The notes under the pieces were generated by a model. It made no database searches and was not told the DNA's origin. It saw only the letters and a program-made list of their open reading frames with translations. Positions 2 to 58,953 of a stretch of 64,000 bases of DNA are shown in pieces (the first letter of the stretch is position 1; the number at the start of each line of letters is the position of its first letter). Origin of the DNA: Candidatus Poribacteria bacterium. Lineage in GTDB: Bacteria; Poribacteria; WGA-4E; PCPOR2b. The DNA lies in NCBI GenBank assembly GCA_965116925.1, contig OZ220744.1:3168001-3232000 (forward strand). Reading direction: 5' to 3'. The position numbers and the translations under genes were made by a program.

Positions 2-418
2 GGTATTGCTGCGATGCCGTACCGAGTGGGACGCGGCACCGCTTTTGGGGACTACGACAACGATGGCGATGTCGATATCTTTATCGTCAACAACCACGGT
101 CCCGCAGTTTTACTCCGAAACGAAGGGGGCAATCGCAACAACTATCTGCACATCAAACTCATTGGCACGAAAGGCAACCGTGACGCCGTCGGGGCAAGGA
201 TTCGACTCAAGGCGGGAGATCACATACAGCTGCGCGAAATCAACGCCGGCGCAAGCTATCTCTCCTTCAACAGCTTAACCGCTGAGTTCGGACTCGCACA
301 AGAAACTACAGTCGATTGGATTGAAGTAATCTGGTTGGGCGGGGATACCGAACGCTTCACCGGTATGGGTGTAAATCAGCGGGTGGTCCTAACGGAGGGA
401 AGCGGAACTCCAAAATAA
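2..418 (+). CDS. C-terminal part of a CRTAC1-like FG-GAP + ASPIC/UnbV protein (5'-truncated by window edge)
   Basis: GDYDNDGDVD FG-GAP motif followed by GNRDAVGARI..GASYLS..FGL..IEVIW, typical of ASPIC/UnbV; frame open from base 2. Confidence 0.85.
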   Translation, partial: GIAAMPYRVGRGTAFGDYDNDGDVDIFIVNNHGPAVLLRNEGGNRNNYLHIKLIGTKGNRDAVGARIRLKAGDHIQLREINAGASYLSFNSLTAEFGLAQETTVDWIEVIWLGGDTERFTGMGVNQRVVLTEGSGTPK

Positions 419-584
419 TGCTAGATAGCGATAATTCTGCTACTCCTATCTCACTCCAGAGGAGTCCGTAGGTTGGGTTGAACGGAATTAATGAAAAATG
501 CCACACATGACAATTGAGGTTAGAGGAGCTGTTCCGGTTGAAAGTTCATAAGTGGAGTAAAACCCAACATTTGATCTACTAGTC

Positions 585-2801
585 CTACCTCCCGCGCTCC
601 CGCCGCCAGATCGTCACCACAGCTGGAATCGTTCCAACAATCAGAAACCCGATAACACCCCAAACGGGCCAAAGGACCGGCTCATTCCACGCTTCCTGCC
701 GCCGAGCGCGCAATGTACTGTCAATCCGTTTATATTTGAGAGTATTATAGCCGGTGGTATTGGGTTTCCCATTTTTCAACCATTCGTGATAAAGGCTAAA
801 ATTGACACGGTGATAAGCAAATACCCAAGGCGCGTCGCGTTGCAGGATTGATTTCATCTTTCGGATAATCTGGAGCCGTTCAGGCGAGTTGTCCATGTTT
901 TGCACCTGATCAAACAGCCGATTGAATTCCGGATTATCGTAATTGGCGACATTCTCCCCATCAAATTTGAGTTTACTATTCGGTCCGTAGAGCAGAAAGA
1001 GGAAGTTCTCTGGATCTGGATAGTCCGCATGCCAACCCCACATCAGGATCTGAGAGCTGCCATTTCGCACCTTGTCTCGAAAACGGTTATAGTCCGTTGT
1101 TCGGACTTCCAACGTAATACCGATCAGCTCAAACCGCTTACGCACCCAATTCAGGAAAGAGGTCGCTTGCGGTCCCGTTCGGTAGTTGTCAAAATAAAGA
1201 ACGAGCGGATTGCCATCTCTGTCCTGACCGCCGGGGAATCCCGCTTCAGCGAGGAGTTGACGCGCCTCCTCCAACGATTTGCGAGTTGCCCCCTGTTCCG
1301 CATCCCAGCTATAGACATACGGGTTGATGCCGATCTCGCCCTCCTCATATCCGAAGATACCGGGCGGAATCGGGTTATGTGAAGGGATACCGCGTCCGTT
1401 GAGAAAAATTTCGATATATTCCTCATAGTCCAGCGCAATCGAGATTGCCTGACGGAGTTTCCGACGATCTTCGGTGTAGCCACCAACCACATCGTCAAGC
1501 ATATTGAAAGCGAGATATATTGTGGTCACATCCACATTTGTTTGTAGTAGGATGTTGCGCGCTTTCAACAGTTCGCTCGTCCGTGGGTCACCCGTATCGG
1601 AGAACGTGATCGCCTGATCAAAGGTATCCGAGGAGATGCCGGATACATCGTAATACCCTTGCAGAAATTTAGCCCAGCGGGGGATATACTCCTTTTCCAG
1701 CTTGTAGACCGCTCTGGGAATCAGCGGCAATTTTGCACCTGCATCGACGAGTAATCCCGCTTCCCTATCACCGACTTCGCCTTCTGTGGGGTATAATTCA
1801 GTGTGAAAATTCTCATTACGGACGAGAACAATCTCCTTGTGTGGCTTAAAGGTATCAAGGCGATAGGGACCCGTCCCGATCGGAAATCGATCTATTGTGA
1901 TGTTCCGATCCTTCAGCGCGGTCTGCCCATAAAAGTCGATGACCTCCTTGGGCATCGGTGCAAAGAAAGGCATCGCCAGCCAGTAAATAAATTGTGGATA
2001 TTTGGTTTTGAGAATGATTTGGTAGGTGTAACGGTCAATGACCTTGACTCCCGGAAATGGGAAGGCATCTATATCTAAGGCGATAGGATTCTCGCGCTCA
2101 TCGACAGCCTGATTATAGGTAGCACCCGCCGCAGCCCGGCGTTTCTCGCGCGCTGCCGCTAGCGTGTCTCGTAATGCTTGTGCGTATTCTCCCATGCCCA
2201 AAATATAATTATCGAGTAGACTCAAGAGAGGGCAAGCGACCCTCGGATCTGCCAACCGCTTAATCTGGTGGACGTAATCAGCGGCGATTAGCTCCCGTGA
2301 GCCCGTTTCAGGAAAATCGCTCACCTCATAGATTCCTTGTACATCGTCGGCTGTCAACGTATGATAGCGGAAATTGCCCTTTGCGTCCTTCGCAAAGCAC
2401 GGATGGCGTTGATACTCGATTCCGGGACGGATACGAATTTCATATACCGCTTTTGCAACCTGTTCAGGGTGGACGTCACCCGGCAAAGGATTTCCTTCGG
2501 GGTCAAAATAACGCGGTTTCGGCACAGATTCAGCTGTCAATGGGATTAGCTGATATGGCCGCTTGAGGTAATGGTACTGAAGCGGAGGCTCGTAGATCTG
2601 TTGGATAAAGCGGTACTCACCTGAACTGTACGAAACCGCCGGGTCCAGATGTTTCGGCTCCTCCGAAAAAGTGCCATAGTAGATCTCCTGCGTATGCTCT
2701 GATACCGGATAGGGATGATTGGGAATACACCCCGCTCCCCAAAGGACAAGGGCGATGAACCACAGTCGGTTCACGGTGCATGTCAGCTCATATCGCTTCA
2801 T
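585..2801 (-). CDS. ABC transporter family-5 (peptide/nickel) substrate-binding lipoprotein with C-terminal TM helix
   Basis: GAGC lipobox; HLDPA, PIGTGPY, WHADYPDPENF motifs; hydrophobic C-terminus. Confidence 0.85.
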   Translation of the reverse strand: MKRYELTCTVNRLWFIALVLWGAGCIPNHPYPVSEHTQEIYYGTFSEEPKHLDPAVSYSSGEYRFIQQIYEPPLQYHYLKRPYQLIPLTAESVPKPRYFDPEGNPLPGDVHPEQVAKAVYEIRIRPGIEYQRHPCFAKDAKGNFRYHTLTADDVQGIYEVSDFPETGSRELIAADYVHQIKRLADPRVACPLLSLLDNYILGMGEYAQALRDTLAAAREKRRAAAGATYNQAVDERENPIALDIDAFPFPGVKVIDRYTYQIILKTKYPQFIYWLAMPFFAPMPKEVIDFYGQTALKDRNITIDRFPIGTGPYRLDTFKPHKEIVLVRNENFHTELYPTEGEVGDREAGLLVDAGAKLPLIPRAVYKLEKEYIPRWAKFLQGYYDVSGISSDTFDQAITFSDTGDPRTSELLKARNILLQTNVDVTTIYLAFNMLDDVVGGYTEDRRKLRQAISIALDYEEYIEIFLNGRGIPSHNPIPPGIFGYEEGEIGINPYVYSWDAEQGATRKSLEEARQLLAEAGFPGGQDRDGNPLVLYFDNYRTGPQATSFLNWVRKRFELIGITLEVRTTDYNRFRDKVRNGSSQILMWGWHADYPDPENFLFLLYGPNSKLKFDGENVANYDNPEFNRLFDQVQNMDNSPERLQIIRKMKSILQRDAPWVFAYHRVNFSLYHEWLKNGKPNTTGYNTLKYKRIDSTLRARRQEAWNEPVLWPVWGVIGFLIVGTIPAVVTIWRRERGR

Positions 2802-47369: not shown

Positions 47370-47586
47370 TAACCCAAGTTGCTAGGTTCTGTTGACATTT
47401 AACGGTCCGTAGGTTGGGTTGAACGGGAACCGTGAAACCCAACAATGTCCCCCTCCGTAGGTCGGGCATCTTGCCCGACTCATAGCCCCAGCGGGGCGAC
47501 ATGTGTATAGAAAAAAGGATAAAACCAGCCAGCCCCAGCGGAGCGACATGTATGTGGCATCGTAACGCAACTAGCAACTTAGGTTA
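47370..47586. mobile_element. MITE family C copy with several hairpin cargos
   Basis: TAACCCAAGTTGCTAG...CTAGCAACTTAGGTTA; GTT direct repeat. Confidence 0.75.
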
Positions 47587-54198: not shown

Positions 54199-54352
54199 TT
54201 AGATTGTGATTCCAATCCGCAACCTAACAGTTCGCGCTACATTTGTCAGACTGCCCGATGATTATAGTAGAGCCCGTAGGTTGGGTTGAACGACAGTGAA
54301 ACCCAACATTCCAATGAACCGATGAACTAATGAACCAATTTCTTGGAATTGA

Positions 54353-55414
54353 TTAACCCGCAGCAGCTTCGCTATCTACCTTCGACTCAACGCCCTGCAA
54401 CGCTTCCCTAGCCTGCTCTGCTGCCTCCGATGTTGGATCGTTGTTAATAATACGATTGAGATGTAGAATCGCGTGTGCATCGCCCTCCCTCGCAAGATCC
54501 AACGCCTCTGCAAACACCTTTTCGCCGAAGCTAAGATCCCTTGGGACTATCGGATGTTCCAAATCCTCCCAGTAGTACTTCAGGTCGTCCGACTCCCAAT
54601 CCCGGTACACATCCTCCCACTGGAGTTCATCAAACCTGTTGAGGTGCGGCTGCAGCATATGCTCCGCTATCGGATCGCCGAGCGCGTGATACCGGTTATC
54701 CAGTGAGACACGGAGTTTATCCTCTGTGTAATTGGGCAGCGCCTGATGTATCGTCAACGCCAAAAAAATTAAGGAGTCCCCGATCTCATAGTTCGTGGTG
54801 TGCCATTCGCCCTCTATCTCGTCAGCGTAGATCTTTTGAGCACCAGCACCGAGCGAGAAGTGATGATCAAGAACCTTGCCGACCTTGTGCGATCCCGGTA
54901 TCAACGCCAGTCCACCCAGTTCTATTGGACAATCACCGACAGGTGCCCAGCAGGTGTAGGTCTGAAAGTTTCCTTGGAAATGCACAAAATCTTGATGTAT
55001 CGGCGTGGTATGTTCCGTATACTTTGGAAACCATAGACGCGCAATTTTCTGCGGATGGGGCAGCACCGGCTTGCCGATCACCTTCTCCAGCGTGTCGATC
55101 ACCTCGGGCCAATGGCCGGAGCGATGAAACGATTCTAACTTATAAACTTCGTGATAGACATCGGTATACTCGGAATTCCCTTCCGTACATTGGCGCGAAA
55201 TATCGGCGATACCATCCATCGGATCGGTGCCAGCGACGAGCCAACCGCCCTCTTGGATGACCGTCAGCATCTCTCGCCGCAGCGCTAATAGTTTATCCGG
55301 ATCTTGCAGTTTCTTGAAGAAGAGGTAGCCCTCATCCTGAATCCGGCGCTGAAGTTCTTCAGGGTCGTCCATTGCATCGTTGGACACTCGAAACTCTTTG
55401 TATTGATTCGCCAT
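54353..55414 (-). CDS. Phytanoyl-CoA dioxygenase (PhyH) family Fe/2OG enzyme
   Basis: TPIHQD; IPGSH; IHQALPN..RVSLD. Confidence 0.9.
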   Translation of the reverse strand: MANQYKEFRVSNDAMDDPEELQRRIQDEGYLFFKKLQDPDKLLALRREMLTVIQEGGWLVAGTDPMDGIADISRQCTEGNSEYTDVYHEVYKLESFHRSGHWPEVIDTLEKVIGKPVLPHPQKIARLWFPKYTEHTTPIHQDFVHFQGNFQTYTCWAPVGDCPIELGGLALIPGSHKVGKVLDHHFSLGAGAQKIYADEIEGEWHTTNYEIGDSLIFLALTIHQALPNYTEDKLRVSLDNRYHALGDPIAEHMLQPHLNRFDELQWEDVYRDWESDDLKYYWEDLEHPIVPRDLSFGEKVFAEALDLAREGDAHAILHLNRIINNDPTSEAAEQAREALQGVESKVDSEAAAG

Positions 55415-55437
55415 TTTTTCTCCTTTCTTATACTATG

Positions 55438-55703
55438 TAGAACTTACGCAGCTGAACATTCAAAGCCTCGTAGGGGCTACTCTAGTGGTTACCTTCAAAC
55501 ATTACCAAACTGTGAATCCACAATTTCGTAGGGAACGCAGATCTGCGTTCCCTACAACCGCTCACTATAGTGAATTCAAAAAATAAAGAAACACTTGCGC
55601 CCCCCGGTAGGTGCGGTTTGTAACCGCACCGGTTTGGCGTGTCCCATTAATTCTAAAATCTACTATAAATTGCGCTACTGCAAGCTGAAGCGCGTAAGTC
55701 CTA
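55438..55703. mobile_element. Family B shell containing family A (55566-55667)
   Basis: TAGAACTTACGCA...CGCGTAAGTCCTA. Confidence 0.75.
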
Positions 55704-55704
55704 A

Positions 55705-56760
55705 CTATATTGCAACGTTCCGTATATTAGATAAATTCTGATGCACCGTCTCCCATACCTCATCAACGGTGATTAGCTTCATACAGATATTGTTTTTACA
55801 CCTGTTCGTAAACTGTTTGCACGGATTACACGGCACATGATGGCGGATGGTCGTATGGATCGGATCGAGCGGCTGAAAACGGATATGATCGCCCGGTCCA
55901 AACAACGCCACCGTCGGCGTGTGCATCGCTGCAGCGACGTGCATCGGTCCCGTATCGTTTGTGACAAATAGATCACACTGCTCAATCAACGCCGCCAGCT
56001 GGCGGATACGAAGGTTACCGGCGAGCGAAATCGCCTCTGTCCGCATGAGATCTCCCACCTGCTGGACAAGCTCGCTTTCGTGAGGTCCCCCAAAAAGTAG
56101 CACCTGCGCGTCAAACTGATTCGTTATGCGATCGCCGATCGCCGCAAATCGGTCAGGCATCCACTCTCGCAATTTCCACCCCGCGCCCGGAAACAGCCCA
56201 ACCTTCGGCAGATCTGCCTCAACGCTCTTGGTGGCAATCATTTCATCGGCAAAAGCGCGGTCTGCCTCCGAAATAAACAGCTCGAGTGTCCGATCCGTTG
56301 CCTCTATCCCGATTGGACGCAGCAGGTCAAAGTAGCGATCGATAGCGTGCGCTGAGGAAATCCGACCGGCACGGATAGCCTTGGTGTTGAGGTCTGGCAC
56401 ACGGACGGTACACAACACTCCATTCGGTTGATGATACCCAACACGACACTTCGCACCGCTCAGATACGCGAGCAGACTCGTCCGAAATTTGCGCTGGAAA
56501 TCGATCGCCAGATCAAAGTGCCGTTCTCGCAGGAGGCGGATAATCCGTCGCATTTCGCCGGTGTCCTTATTCCCCGCTTTTCGGTCAAACGGAATCACTT
56601 CGTCTATATGCGGACTTTCCGTGAGTAGGTCAGCAGACTGCTTCGCCACTAACATTGAGATACGCGCCTGCGGAAAGTGCTGCCGCACCGCACGGATGGC
56701 TGGCGAAGTCAGGACAATATCGCCAAGTGAACTGAGACGAATGAGAAGGATATTTTTCAT
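55705..56760 (-). CDS. GT9 LPS heptosyltransferase (WaaF-like)
   Basis: RLSSLGD; PGA..REW; NDTGPMHVAAA; ALFGP. Confidence 0.9.
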   Translation of the reverse strand: MKNILLIRLSSLGDIVLTSPAIRAVRQHFPQARISMLVAKQSADLLTESPHIDEVIPFDRKAGNKDTGEMRRIIRLLRERHFDLAIDFQRKFRTSLLAYLSGAKCRVGYHQPNGVLCTVRVPDLNTKAIRAGRISSAHAIDRYFDLLRPIGIEATDRTLELFISEADRAFADEMIATKSVEADLPKVGLFPGAGWKLREWMPDRFAAIGDRITNQFDAQVLLFGGPHESELVQQVGDLMRTEAISLAGNLRIRQLAALIEQCDLFVTNDTGPMHVAAAMHTPTVALFGPGDHIRFQPLDPIHTTIRHHVPCNPCKQFTNRCKNNICMKLITVDEVWETVHQNLSNIRNVAI

Positions 56761-57133: not shown

Positions 57134-58705
57134 ATGCCAAAACCACGCATCATGTTCTACCACGACGGACGCCATCCACACATCTACCGCTACGAACCAC
57201 CCATGCAGAAGGAGGAGTATCAAGCCTGCATTGACGAGTTAGTCGGTACGCCTATCGAGGCAGTAATGTTCTGCTTGGGAGAGGGACGCACCGTCCTGCA
57301 CGATACCAAAGTGGGTGAACTGCTGGGGCACAACGTAGACAAATGGGACCACCTCGTCTTCCACCGCGCCCACCAAAACGCCAAGAGCCTCATCAAGGCG
57401 GGGCATGATCCGCTGCGAATCGTCTGCGAGCGGGCACACGAGAAAGGGCTGCTACTCTACCCCACCTTGCTCGTCCAAAATTTCGGTCCGGAGACGGCGT
57501 CGGTACGCTGTTCAGATTTCCGCTGGGAGAACCGACATCTCGAAATCGGGGCCCGTGGCGACCTGAACCCCGATATGCCTTGGATCGACGGACTCGACTT
57601 CAAGCACCGAGAAGTCCAAGACGAACGTTTTGCCCTAATCGAGGAGACCTTGAATGAGTATCCGGTCGACGGATTTGAACTACAACTGAACAACTATCCG
57701 CGCTACTTTCACCCGGACGAAGTGAATGCAGGAATTGGGGTCATGACCGACTGGATCGGACGGGTGCACGAAGCGGTCAAAAAGAGCGGGACAGATCGAG
57801 AATTGGTCATCCGTGTTCCGTCCAATATAGAGGACGCTCTATCCATTGGACTGGACTTGGAGACGTGGGTGAAGCGGGGAATTGTGGATGCTTTGGTCGG
57901 TGAGCCCTTCTCCGCGCCACATCGGATAGATCCGAATACCGATTTCCGTCCACTGGCAGCAATGGTGAAAGACTCCGCCTGCCGCTGCATCGCAGCCATC
58001 CACAGCCATGTGGACTCGGACCGACTCGCTGAAGCACCCATCTCCATGGTCCGTGCCACAGCCTGTAACTACTGGGAGCAGGGGATCGACGGGCTTTACT
58101 TGGCACAGTGGTTTCCGCACTGGCCCTATCAGGCGGATTTCTACGAAAGGCTGCGCGAGATACCGCACCCCGACATCATGGAGGCAAAGGACAAATACTA
58201 CTATATCCCAACCGAGAACGCTCGCCCCCACGAACCTTGGGTGTCCACACAGCTACCGATTAAGATGGAAGTGAATAAACCAGCTACAGCGAAGTTCACT
58301 ATCAGTGACAATCTTCCGCGTTGGGACAAAATAGGACGGGTGCATGAGGTGCTATTAAGGGTAGGAATCGCCGGCACGACGGAGTTAGATCGGATTCGCT
58401 TCAGTCTTAACGGGAAAGCGTTACCGGAAAGGATAATGCGTAAGATCAATCAGATGTATCGTATGAGTGGACCGCGCAACCGATCCGGTCCTACATACTG
58501 GTTTATCTTCCCGCTAGATCGGGCGCATTTCCCCCAGCGCGGAGAAAATACGTTGGAGGTCACACTGCTTGAACGCGATCCTGATGTTCTCGGTGCAGTT
58601 TCTCTACGCGATGTTGAACTGGAGATTAAGTATTTAATGGGTAGGAGCTTTCATCGCGGTGATGTGGATCCTGACCTCGGACCTCACGGGTATGGGGTAT
58701 CATAG
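57134..58705 (+). CDS. Hypothetical protein, probable glycoside-hydrolase-like TIM barrel plus beta-sandwich
   Basis: AGGAGG RBS; LDF...YPVDGFEL; GIDGLYL. Confidence 0.65.
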   Translation: MPKPRIMFYHDGRHPHIYRYEPPMQKEEYQACIDELVGTPIEAVMFCLGEGRTVLHDTKVGELLGHNVDKWDHLVFHRAHQNAKSLIKAGHDPLRIVCERAHEKGLLLYPTLLVQNFGPETASVRCSDFRWENRHLEIGARGDLNPDMPWIDGLDFKHREVQDERFALIEETLNEYPVDGFELQLNNYPRYFHPDEVNAGIGVMTDWIGRVHEAVKKSGTDRELVIRVPSNIEDALSIGLDLETWVKRGIVDALVGEPFSAPHRIDPNTDFRPLAAMVKDSACRCIAAIHSHVDSDRLAEAPISMVRATACNYWEQGIDGLYLAQWFPHWPYQADFYERLREIPHPDIMEAKDKYYYIPTENARPHEPWVSTQLPIKMEVNKPATAKFTISDNLPRWDKIGRVHEVLLRVGIAGTTELDRIRFSLNGKALPERIMRKINQMYRMSGPRNRSGPTYWFIFPLDRAHFPQRGENTLEVTLLERDPDVLGAVSLRDVELEIKYLMGRSFHRGDVDPDLGPHGYGVS

Positions 58706-58953
58706 TAGGTTGGGTTGAACGGTTAAACGGCAACCCCTATCAACTACAAGAGAGGTTGCATCATTCAACAACATCTGCTTATAGACCGATAGAGTAAAAC
58801 CCAACTCCGTTTGTCATCGGGACGGCTCCTTTTGAAAACATTATTCCCTAAAAGTGGGCTTTTGTACCACGAACTGTTAGATTGCGATCTCCGTCCGCAA
58901 ACTAAAATTCGTTACGTTTCACTAATTTCTTGAATTTTCACTCAAGACAAGCG

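Follow-up and report, generated by a model that had tools for sequence, protein, structure and literature searches.

Few non-coding repeats of bacteria are as common as REPs and REPINs, and how they are recognised, copied and maintained are still open questions. In the survey by Di Nocera, De Gregorio and Rocco (2013; PMC3733652), GTAG-tagged REPs have a size of 20-40 bp, a stem of 5-13 bp and loops of 2-20 nt (27 at most, unusual loops having been discarded from that survey), and head-to-head (HH) dimers with spacers of 20-100 bp are common among them. The REPINs of Pseudomonas fluorescens SBW25 are described by Bertels and Rainey (2011; PMC3116915) as two invariant inverted ends with a less conserved spacer of fixed length between them (71 bp between the 16-mers in the case of GI), the spacers pairing into one long hairpin with compensatory changes. 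For E. coli TnpA-REP, Corneloup et al. (2021; PMC8266576) state that GTAG and a bulge are required and that the loop is non-specific; in the E. coli REPtron two conserved mismatches form the bulge needed for cleavage and REPs flank the RAYT gene. We found no literature on Poribacteria repeats of the long-loop REP kind that is the subject here.

The stretch of DNA analysed (the window, 64,000 nucleotides) corresponds to G000:C1:3168001-3232000, G000 being a Candidatus Poribacteria genome of 6.47 Mb and 49% G+C in a single contig. Two elements of 101 bp, in which the arms GTAGGTTGGGTTGAACGG and GAGTAAAACCCAAC enclose 69 nt, are present on its plus strand at 468-568 and 58705-58805, as the original prediction had it. 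The former consists of a left arm at 468-485 (the GTAG head and then the stem), an insert at 486-554 and a right arm at 555-568, and the latter of a left arm at 58705-58722, an insert at 58723-58791 and a right arm at 58792-58805. Their inserts, noticed from the start as mostly dissimilar, are unrelated in sequence and belong to two different families, B for the element at 468 (HMM match with E = 5.4e-12) and A, subfamily A1, for the one at 58705 (E = 1.7e-13). The two compact forms that had been pointed out were also found, again on the plus strand, at 47409-47443 (35 bp) and at 54276-54307 (32 bp), and both belong to the family of the 101-bp elements. With up to 3 mismatches the 17-nt left arm has four matches in the window for 0.20 expected, and none of 100 shuffles reached four; in all four copies the left arm begins with GTAG and the right arm pairs with it. 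Both long forms lie just 3' of genes, again as predicted. The element at 468 starts 50 nt past the stop of ORF 2..418(+) and ends 17 nt short of the stop of the convergent ORF 585..2801(-), and ORF 57134..58705(+) overlaps the one at 58705 by one base of its stop codon. A module (AAGTTGCTAGGTTCTGTTGACATTTAACGGTCC, 47377-47408, plus strand) precedes the compact form at 47409; it is often found 5' of REPs of the long-loop family and is an inverted end of a MITE-like composite. At 47457-47479, 13 nt 3' of the same compact copy, there is a REP of another family (GTAG + GTCGGGCA..TGCCCGAC).

Folded as single strands, the compact copies leave the four bases GTAG unpaired ahead of a stem of 8 bp; an internal 2 × 2 mismatch, with GA on either side, separates this stem from an upper one of 2-4 bp that carries a small loop. 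In the copy at 47409 the tandem G·A is followed by 4 bp and the loop GAA. Their fold z-scores were -4.3 as DNA and -4.0 as RNA for 47409-47443, and -3.6 and -3.7, respectively, for 54276-54307. In the long forms an arm stem of the compact type closes a loop of about 69 nt, and in the copy at 468 this stem is the sole pairing of the DNA centroid. The foot of the long forms is made of GTAG, one G, an 8-bp stem (GTTGGGTT/AACCCAAC), a tandem G·A/A·G mismatch and an upper stem of 2-4 bp. GTAG stands ahead of the stem in nearly all the copies listed. The upper stem covaries: 209 copies have GAAC/GTGA, 24 have GAGC/GCGA and a single one is a G-T intermediate. The two G·A positions are complementary in no copy. 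We also considered integron attC sites, in which the folded strand begins with the inverse core RYYYAAC (5' side) and finishes with the core GTTRRRY (3' side). GTTGGGT and ACCCAAC, two words of the Poribacteria elements, fit these cores, but their order is reversed on both strands and the copies are dispersed without forming arrays, so that this identity was discarded.

With the GTAG-tagged REPs of the survey (PMC3733652), the Poribacteria family shares the terminal GTAG, the stem of 5-13 bp, the non-complementary residues near the loop, the high copy number, the extragenic location, the presence of several families per genome and the HH dimers with GTAG outside. The compact forms of 32-35 bp fit the size range of these REPs, whereas the long forms exceed the ranges of both size and loop. 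The likeness to E. coli TnpA-REP (a group 2 RAYT) resides in the GTAG placed before an imperfect palindrome with conserved mismatches, a feature known on the Poribacteria side from sequence; the mismatch, however, is a tandem G·A in Poribacteria and AA/GC in E. coli.

A first census of G000, with 221 left-arm matches and the right arm sought within 600 nt, gave 69 pairs at 30-36 bp, 89 at 99-104 bp (53 of them of exactly 101), 24 of other lengths and 39 matches without right arm, the total element length being bimodal across the genome. The second census (a 14-nt left arm with at most 2 mismatches plus a 10-nt right arm) gave 247 left-arm matches, 93 of which had a length of 95-110 nt, distributed as 2 at 99, 14 at 100, 58 at 101, 11 at 102, 5 at 103, 2 at 104 and 1 at 107. 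One of the 93 was a neighbour read on the opposite strand, which leaves 92 elements, and three further long copies bring the number to about 95. Compact copies are about 72, with peaks at 32 bp (35 copies) and 35 bp (26 copies), so that the family totals around 167 copies in G000 and the long form makes up about 57% of it (95/167). There were 67 matches without right arm in the second census, about 10 of which are truncated copies and most others chance matches in genes; none of the 67 bounds a longer element. Crude ORFs (at least 150 aa, chosen greedily with no gene finder) contain only 5 of the 173 parsed copies, 2 of the 97 long ones and 3 of the 76 compact ones, and the upstream stop codon lies at a median distance of 53 nt. 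Compact copies change strand near 3.0 Mb (1 plus and 17 minus between 2.5 and 3.0 Mb, 23 plus and 1 minus between 3.0 and 4.0 Mb), which may reflect replication or the orientation of genes; the cumulative GC skew of G000 gave no usable origin or terminus against which to read a replication-strand bias.

At least 14 GTAG-headed hairpin families are found in G000, and the long-loop class occurs in one only, that of the window elements, where the exact 8-nt arms are 80-81 nt apart in 86 of 137 copies. A second REP family of the same genome (GTAG + GTGCGGTT) has 36 copies with the 8-nt arms 120-121 nt apart, another instance of arms enclosing an insert of constant length, possibly due to a TA-inserting MITE within the loop. 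When the different sources were pooled, 350 long copies of many species (a few possibly counted twice, as the collections overlap) measured 101.3 ± 1.5 bp, with 89% of them at 100-103 bp. The insert length of the genomic arm pairs, a histogram of which had been proposed from the outset, is therefore narrowly and not broadly distributed. ERIC and Correia elements are other dispersed intergenic palindromic repeats with discrete short and long size classes. However, their classes differ by a conserved internal segment, while in Poribacteria the segment varies by family and its length is kept.

Clustering of the inserts of the 93 G000 matches gave 65 sequences in family A (including 58705), 24 in family B (including 468), 3 in family D and one artefact. 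On average, two inserts of A differ by 0.35 and two of B by 0.43, and the inserts of A and B do not align to each other. Insert-only HMMs retrieved 76 A and 26 B matches in G000, with both arms intact in 68 and 23 of them, respectively, and the rest truncated on one side; copies with a good insert and decayed arms are thus essentially missing. In other genera, sequences homologous to A and to B can still be recognised, together with arms of the alternative type. The original prediction had left two readings of the insert, a length-constrained capture of DNA or an old subfamily kept on arms and length only. We have abandoned capture, and with it the idea of spacer-like inserts, since the inserts fall in a few families and evolve by ordinary point changes (45/582 sites between orthologues, to be compared with 114/1102 in the flanks). 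Nor do all inserts align to one decayed consensus; they align to several.

The strand that carries GTAG is rich in A and C and poor in G over the insert (A.34, C.24, G.16-.18, T.24-.27), alike in A, in B and in other genomes. As DNA, the inserts fold less stably than random intergenic 69-mers of G000, which were the comparison set for all folding energies (-4.2 versus -5.8 kcal/mol, p = 3.5e-6). RNAalifold found only the arm stem in both A and B, with no interior consensus helix, and the insert-only fold z-scores ranged from +0.13 to -0.78. When the fold of the window A copy was read across the other 64 A copies, 60% of the cells were paired versus 30-40% in slid controls, indicating a weak imperfect hairpin character for family A; family B has none. 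Most of this pairing comes from the conserved words TATC..GATA, with hardly any double changes. Inspected by eye for a small ORF, the inserts of family A have stop codons in every frame, and only some copies elsewhere are open.

The rates of change of arms and inserts were compared in 8 clean orthologous pairs, 7 with G005 and 1 with G018, after excluding as false the automatic pairs L224, L254 and L261 (repeated flanks or a different occupant). The arms had changed at 4/224 sites (1.8%), the inserts at 45/582 (7.7%) and the alignable flanks at 114/1102 (10.3%). Arms and inserts differ significantly (p = 8e-4), and inserts and flanks do not (p = 0.096), indicating that the arms are held in place and that the inserts drift, at about the neutral rate. 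Hypermutation of the inserts was discarded by the same numbers (7.7% versus 10.3% in the flanks), and the deep divergence among paralogs reflects age. Regarding length, the gap events per pair in family A (1.06) equal the prediction from the flanks, which are mostly coding (0.033 gap openings per mismatch × 32 substitutions). One subfamily shows compensating one-base indels in the alignment, and the length is kept at 101.3 ± 1.5 bp although most inserts cannot be aligned between families. The narrow spread and the compensating indels, set against gaps in family A that are not below the prediction, make a constraint on insert length likely and moderately shown, short of proof. Of the two original readings, the old subfamily kept on arms and length is therefore the one that agrees with the data, the arms clearly and the length with the strength just given.

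The long forms also occur as doublets. In G000 there are 13 head-to-head pairs with GTAG outermost, always in the order B (or B-like), spacer, A or D, the spacer being of 24-39 bp, or of 130 bp when a TA-ended MITE of 106 bp is nested in it. In other genomes both partners are present at 43 of 116 loci (within 200-nt flanks). The inserts of partners are not complementary, their identity of 0.487 being no higher than that of non-partners (0.498; 0.476 after shuffling the partners), so that a doublet amounts to two hairpins, or to a stem with a huge internal loop, and not to a single long hairpin. The inverted ends of the doublets extend about 5 nt past GTAG, and none of the 13 in G000 has a target-site duplication. 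Doublets are copied as units. The one at 1879310 of G000 is 93-94% identical over about 236 nt to other loci in G000, G010 and G018, and is absent from its own orthologous site in G005, G008, G007, G001 and G014. In G018 the orthologous site (L285, G018:C1:5110340-5110900) holds a decayed doublet: both inner arms and the spacer are gone from the stretch between two TTCAC words, and the outer left arm carries 2 changes. Furthermore, G007 contains several doublets, at two loci of which the 80 nt shown of each half are identical.

Compared with the SBW25 REPINs (PMC3116915), the Poribacteria elements share the inverted ends with a fixed spacer length, the doublet as copying unit, the persistence and vertical inheritance, and singlets as remnants. 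They are unlike them in that pairing is seen neither within the 69-nt insert nor between the two halves of a doublet, in that a single long form is bounded by the halves of one REP stem and not by two full REPs, and in that no cognate flanked RAYT was present among the Poribacteria loci read. The long loop is a new trait on REP/REPIN and no new kind of system.

The family is widespread. The exact 16-nt arm was found in 23 of 31 related genomes (no match for the reversed-pattern control), namely in all 18 others of the genus, in 3 of 3 of a genus from another family and in 1 of 4 of a third genus, with no match in four further genera. A scan for long forms with one genome per species gave at least 123 stretches; among those listed, 119 are titled Poribacteria and the other 4 come from two 'uncultured bacterium' bins, one Caldilineaceae bin and one Anabaena assembly contig. 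From the listed loci we could parse 168 long forms, only 22 of which score as A or B, and several of the other insert families are visibly related to A or B. The arm types in these loci were GAAC/GTGA in 129 cases and GAGC/GCGA in 22. This palindromic REP-type repeat is spread throughout sponge-symbiont genomes.

Individual copies come and go between relatives. Of 10 relatives read, 9 lack the element at 468 in the orthologous spacer; G007 has a B+A doublet at this place, and other relatives have different repeats. The element at 58705 has an orthologue in G005 with 5 of 69 insert positions different, and is absent in G008. For 30 of the 33 long forms found in G005, the G000 orthologue was full in 7 cases, truncated in 3, lacking in 8 and ambiguous in the other 12. 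A terminator-like hairpin repeat (AGAAACCGAGTTTTTG.CAAAAACTCGGTTTCT) fills sites of the relatives where G000 has a long REP, and the converse is found too; the sites concerned are those of L130, L140 and L131 (orthologs of window 420-585) and one near 1782944 of G000:C1. The intergenic spacers between gene ends are hot spots for several kinds of repeats. No clean filled and empty pair with exact junctions was present among the orthologous sites read, because these sites carry other repeats or rearrangements.

Some copies travel inside larger elements. Subfamily A1, to which 58705 belongs, has fixed flanks and is accompanied by an extra repeat of about 100 bp (TCCGTTT..TTTTGTACCAC..GATCTGTTAGATTG.., plus strand, 58806-58905 in the window) that is part of a larger MITE-like composite. 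The downstream flank of A1 type is common to more than 20 A copies, and the module region matches dozens of places in the relatives. At several loci A1 is enclosed in a composite that measures about 440 bp and has inverted ..CTAGGnnnTGTTGACATTT.. ends, so that part of the family has been spread by hitch-hiking. At one orthologous composite (L185 and G000:C1 6127885-6128408) G005 has an A1 long REP and G000 a REP of the GTAGGGGTTGGG type; the REPs seem to be exchanged within the carrier element.

With moderate confidence, we interpret the 101-bp elements as long-loop members of one GTAG-tagged REP family of Candidatus Poribacteria, moved by an inferred RAYT-type enzyme. The working part is the arm pair, and the insert of about 69 nt is a loop or spacer. 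The transposase that moves the long-loop REP/REPIN is probably of the RAYT type. By this mechanism the foot would be the single-stranded DNA target of a RAYT-type (HUH, Y1) transposase, an enzyme whose lack of specificity for the loop would make a long loop tolerable. Copies would spread without target duplication, either singly or as head-to-head doublets in the fashion of REPINs, and the A1 copies may do so as passengers of a larger MITE. G000 has five Y1_Tnp genes. The best-scoring one (L124, G000:C1:6294812-6298063) is split over the overlapping ORFs 1429..1764 and 1185..1475 on the minus strand, which could be a frameshift or an assembly error, and is flanked by REPs of another family (GTAGGGGTTGGG type). 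A second one (L126) is flanked by its own, different REPs. Actually, GTAGGTTGGGTT arms were found beside Y1_Tnp at none of the 5 loci of G000 and at none of 29 loci of the relatives, among about 119 matches listed, with one stray match in L164 among the 34 loci read. As no Y1_Tnp locus read is flanked by a REP of the long-loop family, the enzyme stays inferred; it could be a shared or trans-acting RAYT, a possibility given by the GTAGG head that all the REP families have.

The element could instead act as RNA, transcribed in 3' untranslated regions or alone. The G·A stem would then hold open an unstructured, A/C-rich loop of some 70 nt on which a protein or a second RNA could land, or else the hairpin would protect or terminate upstream transcripts. 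As RNA, the G-poor loop strand folds far less than intergenic 69-mers (-9.05 versus -12.7 kcal/mol, p = 1e-13) and its complement folds normally (-12.8 to -13.6 kcal/mol). Compact copies between tandem genes lie more often on the sense strand (41 v 17), and the short median distance to the upstream stop codon and the tolerance of G-T intermediates in the stem also agree with transcription. The sense bias and the G-poor loop keep a role at the RNA level alive, but we consider it rather improbable, as there is no Rfam match at gathering score in the window (none at E up to 10 for window 380-660), and across families the loop has neither covariation-supported structure nor conserved sequence. Moreover, single long forms have no significant strand bias (32 v 21), doublets, which show no preference of gene context, put one half antisense by construction, and the turnover of presence and absence between sister species is at odds with fixed gene-specific roles. 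Most copies are not followed by a T-run, and an intrinsic terminator was discarded for the lack of a general one. The Logan contigs (two metatranscriptome and two DNA runs, from a related strain) break at every repeat and are for this reason silent on transcription, ends and strand.

The doublets also invite the explanation of an ordinary MITE of a DDE transposase, with the outer arms of about 18-23 bp as terminal inverted repeats, the inner arms as subterminal binding sites and the doublet as the full element. Their perfect inverted outer ends reaching about 5 nt beyond GTAG, their movement as units and the A1 subfamily riding in a MITE-like composite are all what such an element would give. 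We find it very unlikely, given the 13 doublets devoid of target-site duplication and the 67 arm matches of G000 without right arm, none of which bounds a longer element; furthermore, the conserved non-complementary G·A next to a covarying pair is sensible solely for a folded single strand, and the compact copies, about 72 in number and plain hairpins, do not reach the size of this kind of element with their 32-35 bp. That same mismatch, together with the strand asymmetry of the insert, would be unexpected if a host protein, for instance gyrase or a nucleoid protein, bound the element as duplex DNA, in the way proposed for the BIMEs of E. coli, which bind IHF and gyrase. Half-sites needing a separation of about 90 bp would account for the fixed length, and the arms conserved in place at fixed spacing, the intergenic position of the copies and the presence of the family in at least 3 genera of three families in one order are in keeping with it. 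However, A content has no clear periodicity of 10-11 bp that would speak for DNA bending (in the periodogram the 101-nt class peaks at about 20 nt and the 102-nt class at about 9 nt) and the compact forms set the half-sites 12-15 bp apart, so that we give a duplex site little probability. Finally, the long form could be a distinct, phylum-wide single-strand element, whose foot is selected at each locus to present an open, G-depleted loop of about 70 nt in which length and unfoldedness matter and sequence does not. We consider this unlikely, but the long form would then be a REP class with a new function, such as offering a landing site to a protein, primer or RNA, or providing the substrate geometry that an undescribed HUH enzyme needs.

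Under the preferred reading, that of a long-loop REP family, these repeats separate a foot of 28 nt, conserved across several genera, from a middle of 69 nt that drifts, stays unfolded and keeps its length. They offer in this way a natural experiment on the needs of a REP-processing enzyme or other reader of hairpins, and they indicate that a family's major form can escape surveys in which 'unusual loops' are dropped. For annotation, the family accounts for about 170 intergenic repeats per Poribacteria genome and for the breaks of assemblies and read mapping at these places. Elsewhere in the window, the region 55373-55839 had a depth 30-100 times that of the neighbouring bins in all four runs, with a 100-nt skip joint at 55565-55666, and is a very high-copy repeat, probably a MITE.
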